Of a stretch of 42,725 nt of DNA, positions 5,396 to 38,176 are shown piece by piece. Below the pieces are notes generated by a model, which made no database searches, was not told the origin of the DNA, and was given only the letters and a program-made list of their open reading frames with translations. Position 1 is the stretch's first letter, and the number at the start of each line of letters is the position of its first letter. Position numbers and translations under genes: made by a program. Origin of the DNA: a virus. The DNA is taken from IMG/VR virus record IMGVR_UViG_3300020202_000040, positions 1 through 42,725 of that record; one strand, given 5' to 3'.

Positions 5396-5791
5396 ATGAG
5401 CGACGAGGGGAACAATCAGGGGCACGACGACGGCCTGCCTTCCCCTCCAGACCGAGGGGGTAGGGGGCAATGCAGCCTTGCCGACCTGATGGACCCGCAC
5501 CGGGCGCGGGGTGCTGCTGGGCTACTCGCCCGCGCAATCTCCGCCGGGTACATCGACGCCTTCTGCATCGACTACCAGGAAGCGAAGAAGCTCGCCCGGG
5601 AACTGGCACAGCTCAAAGACAACCCAAGGGCGAAGGCTGCTGGCGTCAAGCTGTTGGCGGCGATGGCTATCCACGACCTCAAGCTCATGGAGATTGCCGA
5701 CAAGTCCAAGCGGCTGGATGACGGCTTGCCCACTGAGAACATCGGGGGCAGCATCAAGTTCATCAAGGGCGTGGACGAGGAGGCGATCTAG
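5396..5791 (+). CDS. Putative terminase small subunit (call by position)
   Basis: 131-aa helical protein immediately upstream of terL, sharing one base with it; ATG 5396 preferred over TTG 5348. Confidence 0.45.
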   Translation: MSDEGNNQGHDDGLPSPPDRGGRGQCSLADLMDPHRARGAAGLLARAISAGYIDAFCIDYQEAKKLARELAQLKDNPRAKAAGVKLLAAMAIHDLKLMEIADKSKRLDDGLPTENIGGSIKFIKGVDEEAI

Positions 5792-7143
5792 TGGTGTCCG
5801 TGGCCGACATCCCCGCTGACGCCAACGTGTACGAGCCGCGGGGCGGGGCACGCCAGTTGTTCCATTGCCGGGACCTGGAAGTGGACCTAGAAGGGCCAGC
5901 GGGCACGGGTAAGAGCCGCGCGGCACTGGAGAAGGCCAACGCCGTGGCTGAGAAGTACCCCGGCGCCCGCATCCTGCTGATCCGCAAGACGCGCGTCAGC
6001 ATGACCGAATCGGTGCTGGTGACGTGGGAAGAGAAGGTGCTCGGCCCAGAGCACTACCTCTGCCGGAACGGGGCTACGCGGGCGCACCGAACGGAGTACC
6101 GCTACAAGAACGGGTCGGTTGTAGTGCCAGGGGGGATGGACAACCCTGACCGGATCATGTCAACCGAGTGGGACCTCATCATCGAGTTTGAGGCCACCGA
6201 GCTGAGCGAGCACGAGCACGAGATGCTGTCCACCCGCTTGCGCAACGGGCGGATCGGCTACCACCAGCAGATCAGCGACTGCAACCCGAGCGGGCCGGGG
6301 CACTGGATCAACCGGCGGGCGTTGGACGGGAAGATGACCCGCATCCTGTCCCGGCACAAGGACAACCCGTTTCTATGGGACGGGAAGGACTGGACCGACG
6401 TAGGCCGGGCGTACATGGCGACCCTGGAGCGGCTGACCGGCCACCGCAAGAACCGGCTGCTGCTGGGCAAGTGGACGGCGGCGGAGGGGTTGGTGTACCC
6501 CGAGTTCGAGGCTGCGGCGGGTGGGCACGTCATCGACGCAATGCCCGATGGCTGGCAGGGCTGGCCCAAGCGCCGCTCCATCGACCTTGGCTTCAACGAC
6601 CCCTTTGTGTGCCAGTGGTGGGCCGAGTCCGACGACGCCCTGTACCTGTACCGCGAGGTGTACATGAGCGGGCGGATCATCGAGGACCACGCCCGGCAGA
6701 TTCTCCGGCTGTCGGCCGGCGAGGACTACGAGGCCACGGTGAGCGACCATGACCGAGAGGATCGTGAGACGCTGCACCGCCACGGGGTACAGACCACGCC
6801 AGCGACCAAGGACATCGACGCAGGTATAGCGGAGGTCAAGGCGAGGCTGACCAAGGGCGGCAACGGAAAGCCCCGCCTGTTCTTCCTGCGGTCGGCGCTG
6901 GTGGAGCGGGACGAGGCTTTGGCCGACGCCAAGCGGCCTACGTCCACGCTGGAGGAGTTCGACGCCTACCTGTGGAAGCAGCACCGCGACGGGGTGGCGA
7001 AGGACGAGCCGGTGGACCGCGACAACCACGGTATGGATGCGATGCGGTATTGCGTGATGAGTATGCAGTCCGGCCAGTACTACGCCTTCGGCACGGGCAC
7101 CGGCGAGCAGCCCAAGCGCGGCGGGTGGAGGGAGGCGGTATGA
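5791..7143 (+). CDS. terL: Terminase large subunit
   Basis: Walker A GPAGTGKS, LIIEFEATE Walker-B-like segment, C-terminal nuclease segment DRDNHGMDAMRY; 450 aa. Confidence 0.93.
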   Translation: MVSVADIPADANVYEPRGGARQLFHCRDLEVDLEGPAGTGKSRAALEKANAVAEKYPGARILLIRKTRVSMTESVLVTWEEKVLGPEHYLCRNGATRAHRTEYRYKNGSVVVPGGMDNPDRIMSTEWDLIIEFEATELSEHEHEMLSTRLRNGRIGYHQQISDCNPSGPGHWINRRALDGKMTRILSRHKDNPFLWDGKDWTDVGRAYMATLERLTGHRKNRLLLGKWTAAEGLVYPEFEAAAGGHVIDAMPDGWQGWPKRRSIDLGFNDPFVCQWWAESDDALYLYREVYMSGRIIEDHARQILRLSAGEDYEATVSDHDREDRETLHRHGVQTTPATKDIDAGIAEVKARLTKGGNGKPRLFFLRSALVERDEALADAKRPTSTLEEFDAYLWKQHRDGVAKDEPVDRDNHGMDAMRYCVMSMQSGQYYAFGTGTGEQPKRGGWREAV

Positions 7144-7418
7144 GCGTCGTTCTGGACATCCATGAGAACGAAGAACTGCGGCACGCCAAGGCGTTCCTTG
7201 ACGGCGTGGAACTCTCGCACTGCTTCCGCCTGTGCCCAGCCGAGGGGTGGGCTGATGTGTACGAGACAGAGAACGGCGGGCGGCGCATCGCACTTACCCC
7301 CGACGGGTTGGCCCCTGCTACCAAGCGGGTGCATGGGCGGGTGTACGCAATCGACACCCGCACGGGCGAGCCGTGGGACACCGACAAAGCCATGTACTCC
7401 GAAGGGGGCTGTGACTGA
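7140..7418 (+). CDS. Hypothetical protein (92 aa)
   Basis: ATG 7140 inside track ORF 6972-7418; ATGA overlap with the terL stop. Confidence 0.55.
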   Translation: MSVVLDIHENEELRHAKAFLDGVELSHCFRLCPAEGWADVYETENGGRRIALTPDGLAPATKRVHGRVYAIDTRTGEPWDTDKAMYSEGGCD

Positions 7419-9970
7419 TGCCGAAGGCCACCACCAAACGCCCCACCCGCGCCCCCAAGTCCCCCACCCCCGGCCGCGAGGTCTACGAGCCCTACGCGAT
7501 GGGCACGGTCATGGTGGGGGAGGGCATGTCCCGCCAGTTCTCGTTCAACCCCACCGACAACGCCCTGGTGCGGCGGTGCGTGCAGCAGACGATGGCCTGG
7601 GCCGTGGCGTTCAACGCGATGGCGTGCGCCCAACAGAAGCTCCGCCTGTTCCGCACCACCAAGGCCAAGGGCAAGGCCCTGTGGGCGGGCAAGCGGGTGA
7701 CTAACCGCAAGATGCTCCGCCACCTGCGCGGGGAGGGTCTGTACGACGCGGGCACCAAGGCTCTTGAGCTGAGCAATGAGGGGGACGTTGAGGAAGTGCT
7801 TGACCACCCAGCGCTAACCCTGTTCCGCCAGCCCGACCCCTTCCAAACCAGCATCGACTTCATGGAGACGCACTTCTGGGGCAAGGAAGCGGTGGGACGC
7901 TCGTACACCTGCAAGGCCGAGCGGGGCAGCGACGGGACGCCGGTGAGCCTGTACAACCTGCTGCCCGCCTACATGACCGTGCAGCCAGACGAGCGCACGT
8001 TCATCCGTGGGTACTGGTACGGGCGCAACACGGTGGCGCAGAGGATGTACACGCCCGCCGATGTGATCTACCACCGGCACATGACGAACAAGCTGAACCC
8101 CCTGGAAGCCTACTCGTGGCCGTCCACGCTCCAGATGGAGTCAGACTGCGAGATGGCGGCGGTGCAGAGCGAGGTGGCGAAGTGGAACAACGGCGGGCAG
8201 CCGGGCATGATCGTGAGCATTGACGGCACACCCCCGTCTCCCACGGCGCGGGCACAGATCGAGTCTGACTGGGCGCGGCAGGTCAAGGGGGTGCAGAAAC
8301 ATGGCGGCGCATTCTTCATATTCGGCAAGGCCAGCGTTACACAGGGCACCGACTCGAAAGAGATGCAGTACGTCGAGGGCCTGACCAAGATCGAGAAGCG
8401 CATCTACCGCGCGGCCGGCATCCCCGACTCCATCGTGGAGATGAGCAAGTCGAACCTGGCGAACGCTTGGCGGGCGGATCCGCAGTACTGCTCGCAGGTG
8501 ATCCTCCCCCGGATCAATAAGTCGGCGGAGGAGTTCAACCTGTGGCTCCTCTACAGCGACTTCGATCTGGACCCGGGCGAGTACTTCTTCGCGTTCGACA
8601 ACCCGGTGAAGGAGGACGAGGTAGCGGCGGTGGACCGGGCGGTGAAGCTGGTTACGGCGGGGATCATCCGCCGAGAGGTGATCGCGGCGGAGCTTGGGTA
8701 TTTGCCGGAGGATGTGGGGACGGACCCCAACGCCGTGCCGGAGCCTGTGGAGGTGGAGGATGGGGCCGAACAGACCGATCCCGAGGGCGGCGACACGACG
8801 GTGGATGGCACAGTCGCCGCGCCGACCGGGCGGGACGTACAGGCGGAGGCCCTCAATGGCGCACAGGTCACAGCACTGGCGGAGTTGGCTTCGCAGGTCG
8901 CGCTGGGTCAACTGCCCGAGCGTTCGGCCCGCGCGATTGCACGGGCGGCGTTCCCCCTCGTGTCCGACGAACTGCTCACCGAAATCTTCGGGGGGCTGGA
9001 AGCCTTCGAGCCAGAGCCCGATCCCACAGCCGCACCGCCCGATAACACTAAACCCCCGAACGGTAATGGACCTAGCAACGTGGCAGTGGGCGGCGACGGT
9101 GCGAAAGCCTTGGGAACTGAACTGACGCGCGGTAGCGTGAGCGCCCATGAGCGAGGCGGATCAACGGCGTCTGGTGCAGATCATGGCTCAACTAGAGCGC
9201 ATGACGAAGCCCGCTTCCCCTCCACCTCCCCCGCCCGCAAACGGCTTGCGCTTGAACCCCGGGAAGGGTGCGAGTGTGGACATCCCGCCGGACATATTCA
9301 CGGCAAAGCCACCGAGCCCGAAACGTCGCTTGGACAACTGAAGGCGAAGCTTGAGGCGTGGCTGAAGGCGACGTACCCGGAGGCGTTGCAGCCGGACGGG
9401 TCGGTGGTGCTGACGCCCGCGCAGGAGCAGGACCTACAGGCCATCCTCGGCCCTGTCATCCGTGAGTACATGGAGGAGGGCGCCAGCGCCACCGCGGGCA
9501 AGCTGGGCGGGGAGTGGGGCGGGATCGCCACCAACCCCCGGGCCTTGGAGTGGGCCGAGCAGCACGCGGCGGAGGCGGTCAGGGACATCGCGGACACGAC
9601 GCGGGCGGAGCTGAACGCGGCGGTCACTTCGGGCTTGCAGGAGTCGCGGACGCTGAACGAGATTCAGGCCGACATCCGCGAGCGGGTGCCGGAGATTGCG
9701 AGTGCGCGGGCGGAGGTCATCGCCCGCACCGAAACCGCCACGGCCTACAACCGGGGCGGGGTGATCGCGGCGAAAGAGAACGGGTACACGCACAAGCAGA
9801 TTGACCTCGCGGGGGGGTCGTGCCCCACCTGTGAGGCGGTGGTGGCGGCGCACCCCGAAGGCGTGCCGATTGACGGGAGTTTCATGGTGGAGGGGACGCC
9901 GATGTACAGCAGCCCGCTGCACCCGAACTGCCGGTGTGCCACAACGTTTGAGGACAGGAGCGAAGGATGA
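7418..9970 (+). CDS. Portal protein fused to a MuF/SPP1-gp7-type head morphogenesis domain
   Basis: 850-aa single ORF. The N-terminal ~530 aa is portal-like, including LNGAQVTALAELASQVALGQLPERSARAIARAAF. A Pro/Gly-rich linker follows. The C-terminus has ARTETATAYNRGG...CPTCEA...PLHPNCRC, typical of MuF-like minor head proteins. Confidence 0.8.
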   Translation: MPKATTKRPTRAPKSPTPGREVYEPYAMGTVMVGEGMSRQFSFNPTDNALVRRCVQQTMAWAVAFNAMACAQQKLRLFRTTKAKGKALWAGKRVTNRKMLRHLRGEGLYDAGTKALELSNEGDVEEVLDHPALTLFRQPDPFQTSIDFMETHFWGKEAVGRSYTCKAERGSDGTPVSLYNLLPAYMTVQPDERTFIRGYWYGRNTVAQRMYTPADVIYHRHMTNKLNPLEAYSWPSTLQMESDCEMAAVQSEVAKWNNGGQPGMIVSIDGTPPSPTARAQIESDWARQVKGVQKHGGAFFIFGKASVTQGTDSKEMQYVEGLTKIEKRIYRAAGIPDSIVEMSKSNLANAWRADPQYCSQVILPRINKSAEEFNLWLLYSDFDLDPGEYFFAFDNPVKEDEVAAVDRAVKLVTAGIIRREVIAAELGYLPEDVGTDPNAVPEPVEVEDGAEQTDPEGGDTTVDGTVAAPTGRDVQAEALNGAQVTALAELASQVALGQLPERSARAIARAAFPLVSDELLTEIFGGLEAFEPEPDPTAAPPDNTKPPNGNGPSNVAVGGDGAKALGTELTRGSVSAHERGGSTASGADHGSTRAHDEARFPSTSPARKRLALEPREGCECGHPAGHIHGKATEPETSLGQLKAKLEAWLKATYPEALQPDGSVVLTPAQEQDLQAILGPVIREYMEEGASATAGKLGGEWGGIATNPRALEWAEQHAAEAVRDIADTTRAELNAAVTSGLQESRTLNEIQADIRERVPEIASARAEVIARTETATAYNRGGVIAAKENGYTHKQIDLAGGSCPTCEAVVAAHPEGVPIDGSFMVEGTPMYSSPLHPNCRCATTFEDRSEG

Positions 9971-12067: not shown

Positions 12068-13501
12068 ATGAACCGCAAGCAGCTTTTGGCGTTCCTCGCC
12101 AAGCAGGGCTACAAGGGCGCGTCAGTTCTCGCAGACATCAAGGCTTGGATCGCCGAGCAGAACGCCACCATCTCCGACCCGTCCGGGGAGGAGGTTGACG
12201 TTGACGCGGCTTGGGCGACCAAGGCCGCTCTGACCGTCGATGACGCCAGCACCAAGGCGCACGAGGCCGACGAAGACCCCGATTCCGTCACCGTCAGCAC
12301 CGCCGAGCTGAACCGCCTGAAGGCTGCGGCCCGGGTGGAGAACCAGAAGGTCCGGGGCACCAACCCGCCCCGCAACCCAGCCGACGCGCCGGCCATCCAC
12401 ACCGGAAACGACCGCTTCGCCCGCAAGTCCTACCAGGGCAAGATCGCCCGGGGCGAGGCCAAGTTCGGCGACGTTGACCAGGCCGAGTACGTTGGCGCGA
12501 CCCTGCGGCTCGCGTCGATGGCCCCCTTCGGCACGAAGTCGTACCGCCAGCGCGAGAGCGACGAGGCCATCGTCGCCAACGTCGTTGGCAAGACGGGCTC
12601 CAGCACCAACAACAGCATCGGCGGGTTCCTCATCCCCGACGACGTGAGCATGTCTATTTCGTGGGCGACCGAGGCCAGCGGCATTGCCCGCCGCCTGTTC
12701 AACGTGCAGCGGATGACCCGCGATACGTGGAGCGGCAACCGCAAGACGGCCATGATCTCCATGACCCACCGGGCGCAGTCGGGCTCGATGACGGCCACCG
12801 ACGACACGCTGGACCGGATCAACCTCATCGCCAAGGAGGTCTACGCCCTGGTGCGCCTCCCCACCTCACTGCTGGAGGATTCGGCGGTCAGCATCGCGGA
12901 GGAGTACAGCAAGAGCTTCGCGGAGGCTCAGGGTCGCCGCGAGGATCAGGACGCCTTCATCGGCGACGGCTCGGCCACCTACGGCGGGCACGTTGGGCTC
13001 GCCAACGCCTTGCGTTCTGGCGCGTACATCGCTCAGGCGACCTCGAACACCTGGGCGGCGCAGGTTGAGGCCGATCACCTGAAGCTCATGGGCTCGGTCG
13101 AGAACGTTGACACCAAGCGGCTCGCGTTCCTGTGCAGCCGTCAGTACTACGTACAGGTCATGCTCCGCCTCGCGCTGGGCAAGTCGGGCAACAACGCCCG
13201 TGACACACGCGAGGGGCTAGGGATGCTCGGCGCGGACGCCGTGTACCTCGGGCACCCCGTGTTCTTCTCGCCCGACCTTCCGATCATCACGGCGACCACG
13301 GCCAAGTCGGTGTACTTCGGGGACTTCCAGGGCGGGGCCACGCTGGGCGACCGGCGCGACCTCACCGTGTCCACCTCCGAGCACGCCTACTTCACCACCG
13401 ACGAGTACGCGATCAAGGCCACGGCCCGCATCGCGGTGAACGTCCACAGCGACGGGCGCTCCGGCACCTTCGGCAACATCGTCTGCCTCAAGAACGGCTG
13501 A
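12068..13501 (+). CDS. Major capsid protein, HK97 fold, with N-terminal delta/scaffold-like domain
   Basis: 477 aa; helical acidic N-terminus, then GGFLIPDDVS...LIAKEVYALVRLPTSLLEDS...EDQDAFIGDGS...YFTTDEYAIKATARIAV, typical of the Phage_capsid family. Confidence 0.9.
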   Translation: MNRKQLLAFLAKQGYKGASVLADIKAWIAEQNATISDPSGEEVDVDAAWATKAALTVDDASTKAHEADEDPDSVTVSTAELNRLKAAARVENQKVRGTNPPRNPADAPAIHTGNDRFARKSYQGKIARGEAKFGDVDQAEYVGATLRLASMAPFGTKSYRQRESDEAIVANVVGKTGSSTNNSIGGFLIPDDVSMSISWATEASGIARRLFNVQRMTRDTWSGNRKTAMISMTHRAQSGSMTATDDTLDRINLIAKEVYALVRLPTSLLEDSAVSIAEEYSKSFAEAQGRREDQDAFIGDGSATYGGHVGLANALRSGAYIAQATSNTWAAQVEADHLKLMGSVENVDTKRLAFLCSRQYYVQVMLRLALGKSGNNARDTREGLGMLGADAVYLGHPVFFSPDLPIITATTAKSVYFGDFQGGATLGDRRDLTVSTSEHAYFTTDEYAIKATARIAVNVHSDGRSGTFGNIVCLKNG

Positions 13502-14713: not shown

Positions 14714-15382
14714 GTGGCCGACCTTGTAACCACAGCCGAGTACAAGGCATACGCGAACATCAGCGTGACCACATGGGACACGCAGATCGGCGTGCTCATC
14801 GACATCGCCTGCGAGATCCTGCGGTCGGAATGCGGCCGCGACCTGACGACCGGCTTCGAGTCCGCCGCCCGCACCGAGTACTACGAGGGCACCGGCACCG
14901 ACACTCTGCAACTGCGGGAGTGGCCGGTGGCGACTCTGACATCAGTGACACAGGTGGACGCGGAGAACACGGCGATAGGGTCGGCCTACGACGCCAGCAC
15001 CTACTACCTGGAAAACGCGGGCGCCTCGGGCCTGCTGCGGTGGTACGGGTCGGCGTCGGGGCGGTTCGCTGCCTCGCGCGTGGGGCTGGGCTGGTACGAC
15101 ACCAACCCCGTGGACGGCTTCGGCACGTACCCCGCTTGGTGCTCGGGCTCTCGTTACAAGGTCGTGTACACCGGCGGGTACGGCACCATCCCGAACAAGG
15201 TGAAGTTCGCGGTCTACCAGCTCATCGACCTGCTGCGGGCAGAGGCCGCGACTGGCGCGTCCACGGGTCTGAAGTCTGAGAGTATCGTGGACTACTCGTA
15301 CACGCGCGAGAGCGTGACGGGCGCGGGCAAGGCCGAGCGTATAGCGGCGATTGTGGCACCCCTGCGAACGGGGGGCCTGTGA
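14714..15382 (+). CDS. Head-tail connector (gp6-like adaptor)
   Basis: GTG start; N-terminal LVTTAEYKAYANIS...IGVLIDIACEILRSECGRDL fits the gp6-like connector pattern; position agrees. Confidence 0.6.
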   Translation: MADLVTTAEYKAYANISVTTWDTQIGVLIDIACEILRSECGRDLTTGFESAARTEYYEGTGTDTLQLREWPVATLTSVTQVDAENTAIGSAYDASTYYLENAGASGLLRWYGSASGRFAASRVGLGWYDTNPVDGFGTYPAWCSGSRYKVVYTGGYGTIPNKVKFAVYQLIDLLRAEAATGASTGLKSESIVDYSYTRESVTGAGKAERIAAIVAPLRTGGL

Positions 15383-15744
15383 ACACGCCCTACCACCTGC
15401 TGACGAGCACGGCGACGGTGGCGGTGCTGTCCACCACGGCTGACAACGCCGGGGCGGAGAAGCTGTCGTGGTCAACGGCGGGGCAGGCCACCATCCCCTG
15501 CAACATCCAGCCGATCAGCACCGCCAACAACATGCAGTACGGGCGGGACACCGCGACACGCCTGTTCACCATCCTGCTGTCCCCCACAGACTCCGCGGGC
15601 GTTGACGTTCTCTCCCGCCTCAACGGCAAGAACCGCATCGTCATCGGATCCGACACCTACGGGATGGAGCCGGGGATGAACGTGGCGGGGCAGAGCGCTT
15701 TGTACAAGGTCATCGCCGAGCGGGTGGAGGGGGTGCATCCGTGA
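15379..15744 (+). CDS. Head closure / head-tail joining protein (SPP1 gp16-like)
   Basis: GTGA overlap; size, position and the ...IPCNIQPIS...RLFTILL...IVIGSDTYGM... pattern. Confidence 0.5.
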   Translation: MNTPYHLLTSTATVAVLSTTADNAGAEKLSWSTAGQATIPCNIQPISTANNMQYGRDTATRLFTILLSPTDSAGVDVLSRLNGKNRIVIGSDTYGMEPGMNVAGQSALYKVIAERVEGVHP

Positions 15745-16361
15745 TCGTCCGCGTCTCCGTCAACTTCGACCGCGGGCGGTTCGATCAGCAGGTCGAGAGG
15801 GCTGTGAACGCAGGCATCTCGCGTGCCGCCTTTGAGGGCAAGCAGTTCATGTCGCGCGGGCTGGGCAAGGGCAAGGGCGACTATGCGGCGTCGGCTGCTG
15901 GCTCGCCCCCCAACGTCCAGCGCGGGCAACTCCGCAGCTCCATCACGAGCACGGAGGCCGTCAACTTCCGGGCCTCCGCTGGAACGCCGTTGAAGTACGG
16001 GCTGATTCAGGAACGTGGCGGGGTCATCCGGCCCAAGAAAGGCAAGTTCCTGCCGGTGCCCTTGAACATCCCCGCGAAGAGGATCATGGAGCGCGAGGGG
16101 ACGCCCAAGAACACCAAGACGCAGCTCATCCGCACCAAGAACGGCAAACTGCTGCTGTGGGGCGAGGACAAGCAGAAGGTCAAGAACCGCGCGGGCCGGA
16201 AGGTCATCGCGGATCAGGTGCCCATCTGGATTCTGGTCAAGCAGGTCAAGTTCCCGCCCCGCCCATGGTGCCTCCCCGCCGTGGAGCGGAACCGCGACGC
16301 TATCGCCAACTCCGCCATCAAGCGCGCCGCGCAGGTGTTCCGGCAGGGGGTGGGCGCTTGA
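15741..16361 (+). CDS. HK97 gp10-like tail component
   Basis: GTGA overlap; position; N-terminal FDRGRFDQQVERAVNAGISRAA. Confidence 0.45.
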   Translation: MIVRVSVNFDRGRFDQQVERAVNAGISRAAFEGKQFMSRGLGKGKGDYAASAAGSPPNVQRGQLRSSITSTEAVNFRASAGTPLKYGLIQERGGVIRPKKGKFLPVPLNIPAKRIMEREGTPKNTKTQLIRTKNGKLLLWGEDKQKVKNRAGRKVIADQVPIWILVKQVKFPPRPWCLPAVERNRDAIANSAIKRAAQVFRQGVGA

Positions 16362-16871: not shown

Positions 16872-17711
16872 ATGGGCTACCCCATCACAGCAGAACTCGG
16901 CAAGATCACAAGCTGGGGCAGCGCCGAGGACGTTACCACGCTCCTCGCCAATACCCGTGTCGTCAACTTCGGCGTCACGTTCAAGTCCGACGAGCAGGAC
17001 ATCACGGCGATGGCCGCGACGTCGATGGAGTACATGGGCGGGCTGCGGTCAGCCGAGGGGACCTTCGAGGCTCTGTGGCCCAACTCCGCCCCGGTGCTAG
17101 GCGACACTGCGGCAATCACATTCGCGGGCGGGTACGCGCAGTTTGCCCAGCGCTTCCGCATAGCGATTGACTTCGGGGAGGAGGACATCACACCGCTCCC
17201 CACCGCGACCGGCGGGTGGCGGCGGTTCATGCCCTCGGGCCTCATCAAGTGGAGCGGGTCTTACACCGCCCTAGCGGTGAGCGACACGGCGGCGAGCCTG
17301 CCCACGGCGGTGAACACGGCGGCGGGCGCGGCCACCTTCAAGCTCAAAGAGTGCGGGGCCACCGACGCGACCTGGGGCGGCAACATCATGACCACCAGCC
17401 TGGGCCACCGCCAGAGCGCGAGCCGTGGCAAAGTGGAACTGGATTACGCCTTCATGGGCTCGGGCGCCTTGACGATCACGGCCGGATCGTCCGGCGGTCC
17501 CGCGATCCTGCCCGCGGGCGCGGTGGACAAGTCGGACTGGGACACCAACGGCGACGGTGTTCCGGATGTGACGTGGCTGGGGCAGACGTTCACGAGTCGC
17601 ACCATCAGCGGCGCGGCGTTCCTGCGGTCGCTGGAGTTGGAAGCGACCCCCGGCCAGCCCATCAAGGTGACGGGTTCGTTCCGGTTCTCGGATGCGGTGA
17701 CGCTGGCCTGA
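16872..17711 (+). CDS. Major tail (tube) protein (call by position)
   Basis: 279-aa beta-rich protein between the connectors and tape measure. Confidence 0.55.
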   Translation: MGYPITAELGKITSWGSAEDVTTLLANTRVVNFGVTFKSDEQDITAMAATSMEYMGGLRSAEGTFEALWPNSAPVLGDTAAITFAGGYAQFAQRFRIAIDFGEEDITPLPTATGGWRRFMPSGLIKWSGSYTALAVSDTAASLPTAVNTAAGAATFKLKECGATDATWGGNIMTTSLGHRQSASRGKVELDYAFMGSGALTITAGSSGGPAILPAGAVDKSDWDTNGDGVPDVTWLGQTFTSRTISGAAFLRSLELEATPGQPIKVTGSFRFSDAVTLA

Positions 17712-18215
17712 TTAGGAGGCGGAGTGCGCGTACCAGTAGTCCCGGTACTTGACGGTCACGGCGAACGCTTCGGGCGTCAGGTCGTGCTCGCGCGCAAGAC
17801 AGATGAACTGGTCGGCGGTTGCGTCTGCAAACTCGACACGGGCACTTCCAGCAAGGGTTCGCCACTCGCGTTCGCAAGCGGCGGAGTGTTCCATGAGAGC
17901 GCGATCAAAACGCTTGACGCAGTCGGGCTCAAACCGGCGATAGGTAGACGCAACAAACGCACTGATGGGGCTGCCCGCAATCGGGGACATCGCCTCGAAG
18001 CGGCAATCGGTCATGGACGCGAGAACTCCCGCCAAGGCCGTGGCTTTGGCGAGTGGGTCGATGACGTCGTCAAGCGTGCGGCACCTGATGATCGCGCGAG
18101 CGATTTCCATGACTGCGGGATGCTCAGGGAAGGACTCGCCCCATGCAATCAGGGCGGACTCCTTCTCTCTGCCGGTGATGGGAAAGAATCCAGCCGGGCG
18201 ACGAGTAAGGTCCAC
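17712..18215 (-). CDS. Reverse-strand accessory protein (167 aa), unknown function
   Basis: GTG start at 18215; stop codon (17712-17714) abuts the tail-tube stop (17709-17711); balanced protein-like composition, whereas same-region + strand ORFs are R/G/S-rich shadows; lower GC3 than neighbours. Confidence 0.7.
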   Translation of the reverse strand: MDLTRRPAGFFPITGREKESALIAWGESFPEHPAVMEIARAIIRCRTLDDVIDPLAKATALAGVLASMTDCRFEAMSPIAGSPISAFVASTYRRFEPDCVKRFDRALMEHSAACEREWRTLAGSARVEFADATADQFICLAREHDLTPEAFAVTVKYRDYWYAHSAS

Positions 18216-18218
18216 GGG

Positions 18219-18452
18219 CTATCTCACCAGCAGCCACACGACGGCCAGCGGAACAGCGATGGCGGCAACCATGCCCCATCCAAGCAAAACGCCGACGCCA
18301 ACCGTGAGCACGGGGTTGGTCAGCAGTTTGGACGAGCGGAGTTGTGCGAGTTCCCCTCGGAGCGCCCGCACGTCCATACGCAAATCTTGCACGGTTTCGG
18401 CCTCGGTCGCATGGTCGTCAATCGGACGGGACGGGCGGGCGAGAGCACTCAT
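18219..18452 (-). CDS. Reverse-strand small tail-anchored membrane protein (77 aa)
   Basis: ATG 18452 preceded by GGAGG (18461-18465); coiled-coil ETVQDLRMDVRALRGELAQLR, then C-terminal TM LTVGVGVLLGWGMVAAIAVPLAVVWLLV; ends 3 nt before the next gene. Confidence 0.65.
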   Translation of the reverse strand: MSALARPSRPIDDHATEAETVQDLRMDVRALRGELAQLRSSKLLTNPVLTVGVGVLLGWGMVAAIAVPLAVVWLLVR

Positions 18453-18522
18453 GGGTCGTACCTCCGGTCTGTAAGTATCCCCCCACGGGCATGGAACGCA
18501 ATACCGAACGGGAGGCGACTTT

Positions 18523-19755
18523 ATGGCCGATAACCTCCCGCTCGGGTCTGCCAAAGTTGAGTTTGTTGGCGATGCCTCCAAACTGAAGGTGGCAGCGGAC
18601 CAAGCCAAGAAGATGGTGGATGATGTCAAGCGGTCGGAAGCCGATGCTGCCGCTTCATCCGCCGCTGATAGGACGATGGAGTGGGCATCCGCCGAAGCCG
18701 CACGCAAGCGGATTGAGGCAGTGCAGCAGTCGGTGGCAGACCCGCTGGCGGATGAGGTTGATAGACAGGACGAGGCGTTCCGTAAAACGCGGCAGTCTGC
18801 CCAGACCTACGGGGACTCCATCAACTCGGTGGCAGATGCGGCATGGAGGCTCAAGGGTCAGGTGCTCGCCGTCACCGGGCTATTCGGCGGGTTCATCGCG
18901 GGCGTGGTGGGCGCAGTACAGGCGATCCCGGCCCTCGTAGAGAAGTTGACTGAGGCGCGGACGGCTTTCAAGCAACTTGCCGAGGCTCAGCAAGAGCAAC
19001 TCATTGGCGCGGCCAAGGGCGCGTATGGGGATCGGTCGAGAGAAGTACAGGGCCGGGACGCCATCGACAACGCAACCCTAGCCGCCAAGCTCGCCATCAA
19101 CGCGCTCGCGGCGGAAAAGAACCTGAGTGATAAGCAGGTGGCAGAACTGGAGAGCCGGGTTGACCGGCTTGCGGCCCTAGAGGAAAAGAGCCTCCAAGAG
19201 AGCTTCCGACGTCGCGAACAGATGCGCGCAAGACAGATCGCACGCGACCTACAAGCCGCTGCCGACTATGAACGGCAGTTCGGGGTGCAGGTTCGGGCGG
19301 AGCAAGAGAGGCGAGATAGCCAACTTGCCGAGGGTTCTTACGTCCGCACTGTGGCACAGCGGCGGGCAAACGAAATCGCGCAGGACGAGAACCCCGAACT
19401 AGCCAAGCTCGAAGCCGAGGTGGCAGACCTTGAGGAGAAGAAGCGCAAGGCTGTTGGCGAATACGCGAGGACCCAGCTACAGGCGGAAATCGATGCGGTC
19501 AAGGAAGGCAACGCTCTCCGCCGTGAAGCAATCCTGAACGCGCAATACCTCAAAGAGAACCTTGAGGTTGCGGACCACCAGCAGCAACTGCGCCGCATTC
19601 GTGAGCAGGCGGAAGCGTGGCAAAGGTCCATGCTCGACGCCCTGAATGCGTTTCGTCAGCAACAGATCGCCCAGTTTGACACCGCCTCCATCGCCTTCGA
19701 CACCTCCCGCATCGAGTCGCTGCTAGAGCAACTCGTCAACAAGAGGGAGCTGTAG
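18523..19755 (+). CDS. Tape measure-like protein (short, 410 aa)
   Basis: GGAGG at 18511; long coiled-coil Q/E/A/R-rich sequence with one hydrophobic segment VLAVTGLFGGFIAGVVGAV; position after the tail tube. Confidence 0.6.
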   Translation: MADNLPLGSAKVEFVGDASKLKVAADQAKKMVDDVKRSEADAAASSAADRTMEWASAEAARKRIEAVQQSVADPLADEVDRQDEAFRKTRQSAQTYGDSINSVADAAWRLKGQVLAVTGLFGGFIAGVVGAVQAIPALVEKLTEARTAFKQLAEAQQEQLIGAAKGAYGDRSREVQGRDAIDNATLAAKLAINALAAEKNLSDKQVAELESRVDRLAALEEKSLQESFRRREQMRARQIARDLQAAADYERQFGVQVRAEQERRDSQLAEGSYVRTVAQRRANEIAQDENPELAKLEAEVADLEEKKRKAVGEYARTQLQAEIDAVKEGNALRREAILNAQYLKENLEVADHQQQLRRIREQAEAWQRSMLDALNAFRQQQIAQFDTASIAFDTSRIESLLEQLVNKREL

Positions 19756-26740: not shown

Positions 26741-27039
26741 CGGGGGCTCCGGGTGGTGGGGGTGAGTGGCTCAACTTCAATCGCGGCCTGTGCGTCGTAG
26801 GCCAATGACAGCACGCGGTCTACCCACGGTGAAACGTGGCTGAGGCCATGGCCCATCGGGCCACGATCTATCTTCGCCAGAGAACGACACACTCCCGTCA
26901 TCGCGTCGGCCTGACGCGCCCGCATCAGCAGGTGGGCCACTGTGTCTGACTCGGTGGGCATAGTAGAGGCCAACCACCGGAGGTAGGTGCCCAGTGTCAT
27001 GTCTTCTAGGCGCTTGGCTGTTCGCTTCGCCATCCTCAC
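26737..27039 (-). CDS. Hypothetical protein (100 aa)
   Basis: GTG 27039 overlaps the HTH gene stop (GTGA); an ATG 6 nt downstream is an alternative start. Confidence 0.6.
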   Translation of the reverse strand: MRMAKRTAKRLEDMTLGTYLRWLASTMPTESDTVAHLLMRARQADAMTGVCRSLAKIDRGPMGHGLSHVSPWVDRVLSLAYDAQAAIEVEPLTPTTRSPR

Positions 27040-27263
27040 TCCTTCCGCTGGGGGCGGGTTAGTCGGGCTTTCTTTGTGGGCCTACCCACCAACGTCGCCG
27101 CCATCGCCCAGTATTGATTCCGCTTGGGCTCGCCCTTGCCCTCGCGCCAGCGATACACCGTCGAGCGGTTGACGCCTGCCGCCCTTGCCAGTTCGGGCGT
27201 ACTCACGCCCGCGTTTGATGCGGCGGCAAACAGTTCGCGTATTTCCTTGGACGCTGGCGGCAT
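27036..27263 (-). CDS. Small HTH DNA-binding protein (repressor/Cro/excisionase-class)
   Basis: VSTPELARAAGVNRSTVYRWREGK helix-turn-helix; first gene of the leftward operon, next to the int region. Confidence 0.7.
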   Translation of the reverse strand: MPPASKEIRELFAAASNAGVSTPELARAAGVNRSTVYRWREGKGEPKRNQYWAMAATLVGRPTKKARLTRPQRKE

Positions 27264-28158: not shown

Positions 28159-28276
28159 CGCCTACCGATTCCCAGCCATTCTGTGAAGAAATGCTCACGC
28201 TCTATCAACCTAGAGCGCCCAGTCTCCCTAGACAACCGCCCGGTGTGTGCGCCCGGTGCCTTGGGGGAGGTTCTGG

Positions 28277-29869
28277 ATGAGCACGACAGACGGGTGGAAG
28301 CTGTGGGACGCCGAGGGTGTGGAGCGCGGGATCGGCGTGATGCCGAAGGCGGTGCCGAAGAACGTGGACGGGGCGGAGCCGATGCCCTATCACGCCACGC
28401 GGCACGCCGACCGTCCCATAAGCGAGCAACTCGCCCTCGCGTGCATCGAAACGGTGCAGAAAGCGTTGCACCTTTTGGAGGGGCAAGTAGGTTTGGCCCG
28501 CATGACAGCGGCACAGGCGAGCCCGGCACCACAGCCCGGCCCGCTCAGAATCTCTACCGACAGCCCGACCGTCAGCGTGCTGCTGGTTGCGTGGACCGGC
28601 GCGTTGAAGCTCAAGGGCGTCACTGACGGCCACGTTAAAGACTCCATCGACTGTGTGACCGACGCCGCCGCGTCTCAGTGCTGGACCTTCCCCAGCCAGA
28701 TGACGCCCGCCACGATCCGCACTTACTTGGAGGCCCGCAAGCTCAAGGGCAACGGCCCGCGGTATCTGAACCACCAACGCGCGTACATCGGCACGTTCTG
28801 GGACTTCTGCAAGGGCGAAGGCGCCGTGTCCGGGGACAACCCCATTGACGCCGTGCCCCGCGCCCGCGTGAAGCGGCGGCAGGCGTTCCACGTCCCTACC
28901 GAGGATGAGGTGGTGCGTCTCATCGTCGGCGCGACACAGGACTGGCGGAAGAAAGACCGCTGGCTTGTGCGGCTGGTGCAGGCGTGCAGCCATTACCGAA
29001 TCGGCACGCTCCGCGGCATGAAGCCCGAGCACGCGCACGAGGCGGAGTTCCCACCGTACTTCGAAGTTCCTCCGGAGCTGGTCAAGAACGGCGAGCCGAC
29101 GCGCGTGTGGATGACGGCGGAAGTGGCTCGCTGGATCACCGAGCACAAGCGGATCAATGCGGCCAAGATCAAAGCGAGGGGGCTGCTGTTTCTATCGGTG
29201 GGCAAGGGCAAAGAGTTCGACCGGGATCTGGAAGCCGCGAATCTCCCGAAGAAAGCGCACCCAGGAGCACCCGCGTTTGTCCCGCACAGCCTGCGGCACT
29301 TCGCCAGCAACCGGCTCAAGTGGGCCGAGGTGTTCACGGACGAGGAGCGGCAGGCGCAGAACGGGCACAAGACGTTGGAGATGACCACGAGGGTCTACAC
29401 CGATCCCTCTCACATTCAGTTAGGCCAGAAAATCTACCGGCTGAAAGACCTTTTACCGGACGGGTTTAGGCCAAGATGGGGGCAGCGAACAGAAAAAACG
29501 GGGCAAAGTGTGCTTGCACCCCCGGGGGAAACCGATAAACTGGACGACGCCAAGCCGAACAAGGGATTGAATCGTGTTCACCCCCCAGACTCACTACAAG
29601 AACCCGCCTGTGACCCGAGTGGTCCGGCTTGGCGGCATGACGGCAATCCCGTGCGGGCGGGTTCTTGCCGTGAGTCGAGCGAAGGGCGGCAGTTAGACGA
29701 GCCTGATACTGACCGGGGCAAGCGGTTCGAATCCGCCTACCCCGACTTAGATCAAAATGACCCCGATATAAACGGGGTCTACCTCGAGCTGATCGAGGTC
29801 CAGGCCCGCCTGATTGCCGCCCTTCTCCGGAAGGGACGCGGCAATGGACCGTCAAAGGCAAGCGGCTAG
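28277..29869 (+). CDS. int: Tyrosine integrase with ~155-aa post-catalytic extension
   Basis: GGGGAGG at 28264-28270; RIGTLRG (Arg), HSLRHF (H-x-x-R), GHKTLEMTTRVY (His...Tyr; Tyr codon at 29396-29398). Confidence 0.88.
   Translation: MSTTDGWKLWDAEGVERGIGVMPKAVPKNVDGAEPMPYHATRHADRPISEQLALACIETVQKALHLLEGQVGLARMTAAQASPAPQPGPLRISTDSPTVSVLLVAWTGALKLKGVTDGHVKDSIDCVTDAAASQCWTFPSQMTPATIRTYLEARKLKGNGPRYLNHQRAYIGTFWDFCKGEGAVSGDNPIDAVPRARVKRRQAFHVPTEDEVVRLIVGATQDWRKKDRWLVRLVQACSHYRIGTLRGMKPEHAHEAEFPPYFEVPPELVKNGEPTRVWMTAEVARWITEHKRINAAKIKARGLLFLSVGKGKEFDRDLEAANLPKKAHPGAPAFVPHSLRHFASNRLKWAEVFTDEERQAQNGHKTLEMTTRVYTDPSHIQLGQKIYRLKDLLPDGFRPRWGQRTEKTGQSVLAPPGETDKLDDAKPNKGLNRVHPPDSLQEPACDPSGPAWRHDGNPVRAGSCRESSEGRQLDEPDTDRGKRFESAYPDLDQNDPDINGVYLELIEVQARLIAALLRKGRGNGPSKASG
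29714..29745 (+). other. tRNA 3'-end / minihelix mimic: candidate attP core
   Basis: CGGGGCA-AGCGG-TTCGAAT-CCGCC-TACCCCG-A; a T-loop plus 3' acceptor strand of C1-G72/A73 (Pro-like) type, inside the int 3' extension. Confidence 0.4.
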
Positions 29870-36804: not shown

Positions 36805-37058
36805 CCACGAACACACAAACGCCCGCAATTAGCGGGAAGGAGACTCAGATGCGAATGGATGAAGCGTTCCCAGTAGCAGTCCATCACCCGATCCCGGCGC
36901 AGCGGGCCGTGTCCATCACGCTGACCTCAGCGGAGTGGGAGATGGTCGCGTGCGACATGGGCATCGAGCACTGCATGCCCAACAACGTCGATGCGACGTT
37001 CCGATCTCTTGTGACTGCGAGCATCGAAACTCAACTGCGTGCGAAGGGGGTCCTGTGA
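36801..37058 (+). CDS. Hypothetical protein (85 aa)
   Basis: ATGA overlap. Confidence 0.55.
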   Translation: MTTNTQTPAISGKETQMRMDEAFPVAVHHPIPAQRAVSITLTSAEWEMVACDMGIEHCMPNNVDATFRSLVTASIETQLRAKGVL

Positions 37059-38176
37059 AGATCACCGCAGAAACCAAGCCCCTCATCGAAGCGGTGGCGT
37101 TCGCAGTTCGCATCGCCAAGAGCAAGTTCAGCCGGGTCCGCCCGATCTTTGGGTGCGTCAAGATCATCGCGGAGACGATGCAGCCACTTCGCCTGGAGGC
37201 GCACGGCGGCGAGATGTGGGCGTCCATCACGGTCGAGCAGGCGGTCAACGAGACACCCGGCATCGTCTGTGTTTCCGCCGAGCGTCTGCTGTTGGCCCTC
37301 AACAACTGCGCCAACGACCCGACAGTGGTGCTGGAGGAAGACGGCCCATGCCTGCACGTTCGCGGCGACCGCACGCGGACGGATCTTCGGACCTGCCCTG
37401 TGCAGGACTATCCGCCGCCCCTGGACATCGGCGAAGCCAAGGCGACAGTCGGGGTCAGGGCGTCGGAGTTTGAGTCAGCGCTTGCGAAGGTGTCTGGATT
37501 CCAGTCTCCCGAGACCTCGAACTACGCCATTGCGGGCGTGCTCGTCCGACGCAACGAGAGGAATCTCGCCGTAGTGGCCCACGATGGCGTCGGCATGGCA
37601 GAAGTCAAACTCACCATGCCAAAGGCGGCAGCCAAAGCCGAAGTCATCATGCACGCCGAGGCTGTACGAACCGCCCGCGAAGCGATGAAGCAGGTCGAGG
37701 GCGGAGTGTCTGTCGAGTGCGTGATCGGCACGAGTGGGGTCGCGATGACGGTCGGGACTGTGACATTCCACAGCTCGGGAGTTGAGGGTGCGTTCCCTTC
37801 CTACGAGGACCACATCCCCGGCAAGTCCGAGGCGTGGTTCGAGTGCAGCGGGGAGGACTTGGCCCGTGCCGTCCAATCCGCCACCACCATGCTGGAGGAC
37901 ACGAAGAAGGCGGTGCGGTTCACGCGCGAGAACGGGCACCTGAAGATCGAAGGGAACACGGCGGAGGTTGGGAGCTGCGAGTCGGTCGTGGACGCCAAGG
38001 CGAACGGCGGCGTGCCGAATGTGTTTGCAACAAGGCCGCGATACCTGCTGAGTGCTATCGACGGAGCTGGAACGGCCATTGTGCGGCTGGAAGTCGAGAG
38101 CTCGAAAAAGCCCTGTGTGATGCGGTCGGGCGACGGTTCATTCACCGCCGTGTGGGCACCGTTCGGCGCAGCCTAA
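37055..38176 (+). CDS. dnaN: DNA polymerase III beta sliding clamp homolog
   Basis: GTGA overlap; 373 aa with three-domain length; EGAFPSYEDHIP matches the clamp hallmark EG.FPDY..VIP. Confidence 0.75.
   Translation: MKITAETKPLIEAVAFAVRIAKSKFSRVRPIFGCVKIIAETMQPLRLEAHGGEMWASITVEQAVNETPGIVCVSAERLLLALNNCANDPTVVLEEDGPCLHVRGDRTRTDLRTCPVQDYPPPLDIGEAKATVGVRASEFESALAKVSGFQSPETSNYAIAGVLVRRNERNLAVVAHDGVGMAEVKLTMPKAAAKAEVIMHAEAVRTAREAMKQVEGGVSVECVIGTSGVAMTVGTVTFHSSGVEGAFPSYEDHIPGKSEAWFECSGEDLARAVQSATTMLEDTKKAVRFTRENGHLKIEGNTAEVGSCESVVDAKANGGVPNVFATRPRYLLSAIDGAGTAIVRLEVESSKKPCVMRSGDGSFTAVWAPFGAA

Follow-up and report, generated by a model that had tools for sequence, protein, structure and literature searches.

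Phage HK97 supplied the first moron to be described: its gene 15, situated between the genes for the tail chaperone and the tape measure, codes for gp15, a small protein of the inner membrane that stops the injection of genomes, and escape from gp15 has been traced to the genes of the tube and the tape measure (PMC3594210, PMC10883804). Other prophage membrane proteins that block DNA entry include SieA of P22, Sie2009 of Tuc2009 and Ltp of TP-J34, the last of which targets the tape measure protein (PMC10883804). Membrane association has also been described for Butters gp31 and for the Sbash gp30/gp31 pair (PMC7542560, PMC6426596). Here, we describe a two-gene cassette on the minus strand of a virus sequence of 42,725 nucleotides (nt), IMG/VR record IMGVR_UViG_3300020202_000040 (the window, by which we mean the whole stretch that was analysed), where it separates the major tail tube gene from a tape-measure-like gene. 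We present evidence that the cassette is very likely a real minus-strand accessory operon in a hypervariable slot, and we consider how its predicted products, a small tail-anchored membrane protein of 77 amino acids (aa) and a soluble protein of 167 aa, compare with these described systems.

The insertion and its flanks, in positions of the window, comprise the following features.

16872..17711, plus strand: major tail tube gene, 279 aa, left flank of the insertion (TGA stop at 17709-17711)
17712..18215, minus strand: second cassette gene, a predicted soluble all-alpha orphan protein of 167 aa (GTG at 18215, TAA at 17714-17712)
18219..18452, minus strand: first cassette gene, a predicted tail-anchored small membrane protein of 77 aa (ATG at 18452, TAG at 18221-18219)
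18461..18465, minus strand: GGAGG, read from the sequence as the Shine-Dalgarno site for the 77-aa gene, with 8 nt between it and the ATG
18523..19755, plus strand: tape-measure-like gene, 410 aa, right flank of the insertion (ribosome-binding site [RBS] GGGAGG at 18510-18515)

An original prediction, made from the letters of this DNA, had placed both minus-strand open reading frames (ORFs) at these coordinates. Re-reading of the sequence upheld them, together with the GGAGG, the 3-nt spacer between the TAG of the 77-aa gene and the GTG of the 167-aa gene, and the TAA of the 167-aa ORF that directly abuts the tube-gene stop (17711). The close spacing suggests that the two genes are translated from one transcript. 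Hydropathy likewise agrees with the predicted C-terminal transmembrane (TM) segment of the 77-aa protein, which has one C-terminal hydrophobic stretch (residues about 46-76, maximal KD19 2.23) and a single Arg at its end, and with the predicted solubility of the 167-aa protein, which has no TM segments and an isoelectric point of 5.6. The G+C content at third codon positions (GC3) of the 77-aa and 167-aa ORFs, 0.72 and 0.71, is indeed lower than that of the tube gene (0.88) and of a 300-aa gene (0.87), as had been claimed. The acquisition deduced from it does not follow, however, because the tape-measure-like gene is equally low (0.71, with neighbouring structural genes at 0.87-0.92), so that composition alone is neither proof of acquisition nor a reliable marker of foreign origin.

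The evidence that the region is an insertion comes from related phages. Contigs of relatives were collected through homologues of the tube protein from an assembly index, IMG/VR, and JGI and ENA metagenomes, yielding 24 non-identical contigs with an informative junction. The gap between the tube gene and the tape-measure-like gene is at most 16 nt in 19 of the 24, as against 811 nt in the window, and since the two genes are adjacent in these 19 relatives, the 811 nt of the window represent an insertion. The earlier proposal of a reverse-oriented, moron-like insert in the late operon of a temperate phage is strengthened by the relatives that lack the insert, as well as by an integrase (phrog_1, E 6e-20) and a helix-turn-helix (HTH) regulator in the same genome. 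The other five relatives carry a longer gap, each with an ORF of its own.

L003: gap of 177 nt, minus-strand ATG ORF of 43 aa
L005: gap of 229 nt, minus-strand ATG ORF of 47 aa
L007: gap of 178 nt, minus-strand ATG ORF of 52 aa
L009: gap of 171 nt, minus-strand ATG ORF of 50 aa
L036: gap of 142 nt, minus-strand ATG ORF of 35 aa

All five of these ORFs encode a polar, positively charged N-terminal part and a C-terminal hydrophobic helix (KD19 2.1-2.95) that is followed by 0-5 residues, and in the four gaps that were tested none of 2000 shuffles gave such a TM ORF. The codon log-likelihood ratio favours the minus-strand ORF over the aligned plus-strand frame in four of the five relatives, with a sum of +36 nats. 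The cargo of the window differs from that of the relatives in that it is longer (77 aa), has a leader (GGAGG) and includes a second gene. Since the five relatives carry the small membrane protein alone, this protein appears to be the core, recurring cargo of the junction and the 167-aa gene an optional addition unique to the window phage. The solitary occurrence of the membrane protein in five relatives also weakens the idea, put forward in the original prediction, of a membrane-sensor/effector pair.

The cassette carriers are scattered over the tube-protein tree. Two of them, L007 and L009, have tube proteins that are 99% identical and DNA flanks that are about 97% identical, and between these flanks a stretch of roughly 165 nt, extending from the tube stop to the tape-measure RBS (L007 5392-5556, L009 4853-5010), is unalignable and encodes unrelated TM peptides. 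The difference between the two contigs is a clean cassette replacement. Together with the sporadic occupancy of the junction, comparison of these sequences points to a recurrent, swap-prone accessory slot.

The insert of the window is open on both strands. A codon model trained on 27 genes of the window phage was used to score all six frames, and the 167-aa frame outscored each of the others by 29.5 nats or more. The model classed a plus-strand ORF at 17965-18474 (169 aa) as an antisense shadow by 24.1 nats and did the same for a longer frame.

17724..18533, plus strand: open frame of 269 codons spanning the whole insert, probably an antisense shadow and not a gene (31.8 nats as the codon-aligned reverse frame of the minus-strand genes)

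The chance of an open frame such as 17724-18533 is about 0.05-0.14, and its 269-aa product is rich in Gly (14.5%) and Arg (10.8%). In the 169-aa plus-strand ORF, G+C is higher at second than at first codon positions (GC2 > GC1), unlike in the real genes of the window. The earlier dismissal of the plus-strand frames as shadow ORFs thus agrees with the codon model. The Logan gene caller, run on an identical contig, predicts both the 167-aa and the 77-aa ORFs, and the JGI gene call predicts the 167-aa ORF. Coding on the minus strand thus has the support of codon statistics and of two independent callers, to which are added, as described below, a single distant homologue and an all-alpha model that is foldable.

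The plus-strand bridging frame has a GGAGG 4 nt before its GTG at 17724, just past the tube stop, and ends 8 nt inside the tape-measure gene. A bridging plus-strand ORF of L003 (8863-9033) ends in TGATG on the tape-measure start, and that of L005 (8829-9064) is ATGA-coupled at both ends. Although probably a shadow, such a bridging frame could allow ribosomes to stay on the late mRNA throughout the insert.

The sole homologue of the 167-aa protein recovered by a HMMER pass over 1.84e9 representatives was P0013, a protein of 171 aa (E 2.7e-4, 27% identity) that is collinear with it over the full length. P0013 is encoded on L021 (1-7387), a small and different mobile element with two HTH_17 genes, Prim-Pol and HTH_31, and its neighbours are regulatory and replication genes, not structural genes. 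A word-indexed search of 5.8e9 proteins matched the 167-aa protein to nothing but itself, a profile built from it and P0013 found no further homologues, and scans of viral contigs with the 167-aa profile and the 77-aa protein found no relatives of either. The AlphaFold2 (AF2) model of the 167-aa protein is all-helical, with a predicted local distance difference test score (pLDDT) of 68.8 and a predicted template modelling score (pTM) of 0.67, and a Foldseek search of this model against PDB and BFVD returned nothing significant (no matches with E < 0.4). That neither cassette protein has a recognisable domain, as originally stated, was confirmed by searches of Pfam, PHROGs, NCBIfam, PADLOC and PDB sequences for both proteins and by Foldseek for the 167-aa model.

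The occurrence of P0013 in a Prim-Pol/HTH mobile element and the foldable helical model indicate that the 167-aa protein is real and non-structural, and it is nearly unique. The original prediction had named a tail chaperone or other virion-assembly factor as the identity of the 167-aa protein that would speak against an accessory role; nothing indicates that it is either of these, and P0013 stands among regulatory and replication genes. P0013 is preceded by a 92-aa protein that, by eye, appears to have an HTH and then a coiled coil (with no domain matches), and not by a membrane protein. The N-terminal helix of the 77-aa protein gave no alignment with this 92-aa protein.

A -10-type hexamer (NANNNT) is found 6-7 nt before the ATG in all five cassette-bearing relatives (TACTAT, CAGACT, TACCCT, TACAAT and AATAAT). 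The chance probability of this placement is about 1.6e-6, or 2.3e-5 when L007 and L009 are counted once, and the spacing appears to be that of a leaderless mRNA layout. For the cassette of the window, a candidate promoter was picked out by eye.

18474..18501, minus strand: TTGCGT-N16-GATACT, a weak promoter candidate for the cassette that scores too low to be reported by the consensus scan

An internal ATG at 18377 (minus strand) would yield a 52-aa version of the membrane protein, a size like that found in the relatives, and ahead of it, at 6 nt, is a -10-like CAAGAT (TGC-AAGATT if a spacing of 5 nt is taken). A leaderless short isoform of the 77-aa protein starting at this ATG is possible. 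The cassette is convergent with the tube gene, and the scan for terminators was empty, in keeping with the original description of the abutting stops as having no spacer and no terminator. Given the convergent orientation and the lack of a detected terminator, late transcripts would be fully antisense to the cassette.

Several observations weigh against reading the junction as the site of a real accessory operon with an exclusion role. Most relatives (19 of 24) are without any cassette. A hydrophobic antisense reading can be the shadow of a polar plus-strand sequence, so that the TM signal of the small ORFs is no independent proof of coding; in L005, another plus-strand frame scores equally well, and for the 77-aa ORF alone the codon preference is marginal (0.9 nats). 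The test of the -10 pattern was post hoc, made once the pattern had been seen, and in the window a consensus scan of 17300-18900 found no sigma-70 promoter and no terminator-like site on either strand; furthermore, the cassette transcript would run antisense into the tube gene. Neither cassette protein matched a PADLOC family at E <= 1 or showed similarity to known exclusion or defence families in Pfam and PADLOC. Finally, two scans of 185,579 reference genomes, with tube and capsid profiles, found no prophage relatives.

We consider it an evenly balanced proposition that the two minus-strand genes form an accessory operon, or moron, that was acquired horizontally, is placed in a lineage-specific slot exactly between the tube stop and the tape-measure RBS and, by analogy with the systems described above, has a role in membrane exclusion. 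The broader assignment of some anti-phage or competition function would, on the same grounds, have an equal prospect of being right or wrong, and a block aimed specifically at genome entry is a tentative suggestion that we regard as rather unlikely. In the mechanism proposed, host RNA polymerase would start from a promoter belonging to the cassette and read it in the direction opposite to that of the late operon, and expression would be confined to periods of late-gene silence, in the lysogen or at an early stage of infection. The mini-protein would have its N-terminus in the cytoplasm and its C-terminal anchor in the cytoplasmic membrane and, as HK97 gp15 does, might interfere with the genome entry of superinfecting siphophages, and the 167-aa protein, presumed to be cytoplasmic, would modulate or extend its activity. 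The entry step targeted in this way is the work of the products of the two genes on either side of the cassette, the tape measure and the tube protein, and both the position of the cassette and its fast turnover would be explained if an exclusion gene were linked to the determinants of sensitivity to it. A more elaborate version, which we hold to be slightly less probable again, is that the junction is a dedicated, rapidly exchanging locus for a class, not described before, of antisense, leaderless, tail-anchored mini-proteins that block tape-measure-mediated entry and co-evolve with the tube and tape-measure genes, and that the mini-protein of the window has recruited a cytoplasmic partner of new fold to give a two-component exclusion or abortive-infection system.

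Of the alternatives to this proposed exclusion role, the one that survives best, although we judge it unlikely, is that the 77-aa and 167-aa proteins form a two-component abortive-infection system in the style of RexAB, Sbash and Butters, in which the 167-aa protein would sense phage and the 77-aa protein would collapse the membrane potential. The genes for a membrane and a cytoplasmic protein lie closely spaced in a temperate phage, as such a system would have them, and there are documented examples of such pairs in prophages (PMC6426596, PMC7542560). The membrane gene stands alone in five relatives, however, which argues that the partner is not required, and there are no PADLOC matches. RexB and the membrane components of Butters and Sbash are multi-pass proteins; the membrane component of the window is single-pass and tiny.

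A second alternative, to which we assign a small likelihood, is that the small peptides are type-I-toxin-like or holin/antiholin-like, their mRNA being silenced by the complementary late transcript, and that they serve in addiction, lysis timing or host modulation. Hydrophobic peptides of 35-77 aa encoded by rapidly evolving cassettes would suit such a function, and with convergent genes and no terminators found the late mRNA would be a perfect antisense RNA. However, the sporadic distribution of the cassettes (5 of 24 relatives) argues against a core role in lysis, and there is no dedicated antitoxin RNA or promoter. In addition, the TM segment of the small peptides is C-terminal and follows a polar N-terminus of 15-45 aa, an arrangement unlike that of most type I toxins.

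Very unlikely, in our view, is a third alternative, in which the antisense promoter itself is the functional element and the peptides are incidental, convergent transcription serving to attenuate read-through from the gene of the abundant tube protein to the low-copy genes for the tape measure and the distal tail. The -10 element does sit exactly at the boundary in five relatives, no terminators were found, and the position is where expression must fall from tube protein to tape measure. Yet 19 relatives lack a gap altogether, the non-homologous cassettes all keep an ATG ORF, a TM helix and positive flanking charges, and the window adds a 167-aa gene with a homologue elsewhere.

Least credible of all, and rejected here, is a reading of the plus strand as cryptic G/GT-type chaperones with the minus-strand ORFs as shadows, for although a lambda-type slippery heptamer, G GGA AAG, lies at 18180-18186 in phase in ORF 17965-18474 for a -1 shift into a frame open to 18533, and although the GTG at 17724 has its GGAGG and opens a frame that stops just within the tape-measure gene, both plus-strand ORFs are antisense shadows by 24-32 nats (the 169-aa ORF with its GC2 > GC1), GGGAAAG is the reverse of the Phe-Pro codons in an FFPITG motif common to the 167-aa protein and P0013, two heptamers in 830 nt are the background rate, the slip site is mid-ORF and not near the 3' end, and the relatives have no gene at this position.

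The cassette had originally been described as occupying the slot of the tail-assembly chaperones. This view is not sustained by synteny: in 19 of 24 relatives the tape-measure-like gene comes directly after the tube gene, so that the absence of G/GT is lineage-wide and unrelated to the cassette. On the sequences compared, G/GT genes are absent at the tube/tape-measure junction across the lineage, and the cassette neither replaces nor displaces tail-assembly chaperones. Tail assembly without G/GT is a real question, one for the whole lineage and separate from the cassette.

The genes on either side of the insertion were assigned as follows. The AF2 model of the 279-aa protein (pLDDT 72, pTM 0.75) has as its best Foldseek matches in PDB mostly tube or tube-like proteins, namely those of a gene transfer agent (GTA), monocin MttP, diffocin, pyocin R2, Hcp and YSD1 (probability about 1), and the predicted fold thus identifies it as a tail tube protein. 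Eleven homologues were found, and homologue identity is 31-50%. At 279 aa the protein is about twice the size of the canonical tube domain, and the Foldseek tube matches span merely about 135-160 columns. Its size and this partial coverage hint at a tandem tube domain like that of T5 pb6 (PMC8718954), and an internal repeat was not supported at the sequence level (hhalign probability 0.7%).

We infer that the 410-aa protein is tape-measure-like, and by inference only, from conserved N- and C-termini around a variable coiled-coil middle, a length that ranges from 288 to 465 aa across relatives, and a hydrophobic Gly-rich segment in the centre. These proteins are short, and in that of the window a hydrophobic segment covers residues about 110-140. 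PHROG tape-measure families gave a weak match to the corresponding proteins of two relatives, and the 410-aa protein of the window itself matched no family in Pfam or PHROGs. Alignments of the tape-measure proteins were too divergent to serve in locus searches, and a search for loci with a degenerate DNA pattern recovered just one contig, already known.

The 42.7-kilobase window is a phage genome, and near-identical contigs are present in JGI, Logan and ENA data; the Logan contig is 100% identical to the window and hence supplies no single-nucleotide polymorphisms for an estimate of the ratio of nonsynonymous to synonymous substitution rates (dN/dS). The gene layout is typical for a tailed phage.

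5791-7143: large terminase
7418-9970: portal fused to a MuF-like domain, 850 aa
9967-10500: HslV-family (HslV-like) peptidase at the position of the prohead protease
12068-13501: HK97-fold capsid protein
14714-15382: head-tail adaptor
15741-16361: Neck1/tail-completion protein
27036-27263, minus strand: HTH regulator in a minus-strand block
28247-29869: tyrosine integrase (the phrog_1 match, E 6e-20)
36935-38176: DNA polymerase III beta clamp

The integrase and the HTH regulator in the minus-strand block indicate that the phage is temperate in potential. The region, the 167-aa protein and the tube protein were all without a match in megablast and tblastn searches of 50,697 phage records, and no close cultured phage was found. 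Rfam, tRNA and repeat scans of the region gave nothing informative.

Should the proposed exclusion role hold, exclusion proteins of this small membrane type could be located by position in uncultured phages whose sequences yield nothing to homology searches, the simple rule being to look for an antisense mini-ORF at the tube/tape-measure junction. That junction would also be a case in nature of an exclusion gene in physical linkage with the very genes on which sensitivity to it depends, and L007 and L009, with their swapped cassettes, would form a ready-made natural specificity pair.

Among known systems, the G/GT chaperones of lambda resemble the cassette in map position only, between the tube and tape-measure genes. 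The cassette lies on the opposite strand, has no frameshift pair and shares no sequence or structural similarity with them, and the position is empty in 19 of 24 relatives. Lambda RexAB and the gp30/31 systems of Sbash and Butters share with the cassette the side-by-side arrangement of a membrane and a soluble protein and, in their case, are expressed from the prophage (PMC6426596, PMC7542560). Their genes, in contrast, lie in the central immunity region, and relatives of the window phage carry the membrane gene alone; no PADLOC match connects the two. SieA, Sie2009 and Ltp are encoded near the lysogeny module and not in the tail operon, and no homology to the cassette was detected; SieA, moreover, has three TM segments in about 162 aa, and Ltp is a lipoprotein.

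The closest parallel is gp15 (YebO-like) of HK97. In both cases an extra gene in the tail operon of a temperate siphophage lies immediately upstream of the tape-measure gene, encodes a small protein of the cytoplasmic membrane, and is absent from close relatives. The 77-aa protein matched no Pfam or NCBIfam family that would join it to gp15/YebO, a comparison in which the shortness of the protein limits sensitivity. The present cassette differs in being antisense to the late operon, in the C-terminal position of its predicted anchor, in its attached soluble gene and in belonging to a lineage without G/GT; in addition, the relatives of the window phage show a promoter of apparently leaderless type. 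Tail-operon morons and small membrane exclusion proteins are thus already known. What is new here is the lack of homology to known exclusion and defence proteins, the orphan helical partner, the antisense and apparently leaderless design, and the exchange of cassettes at a fixed junction in an uncultured lineage.

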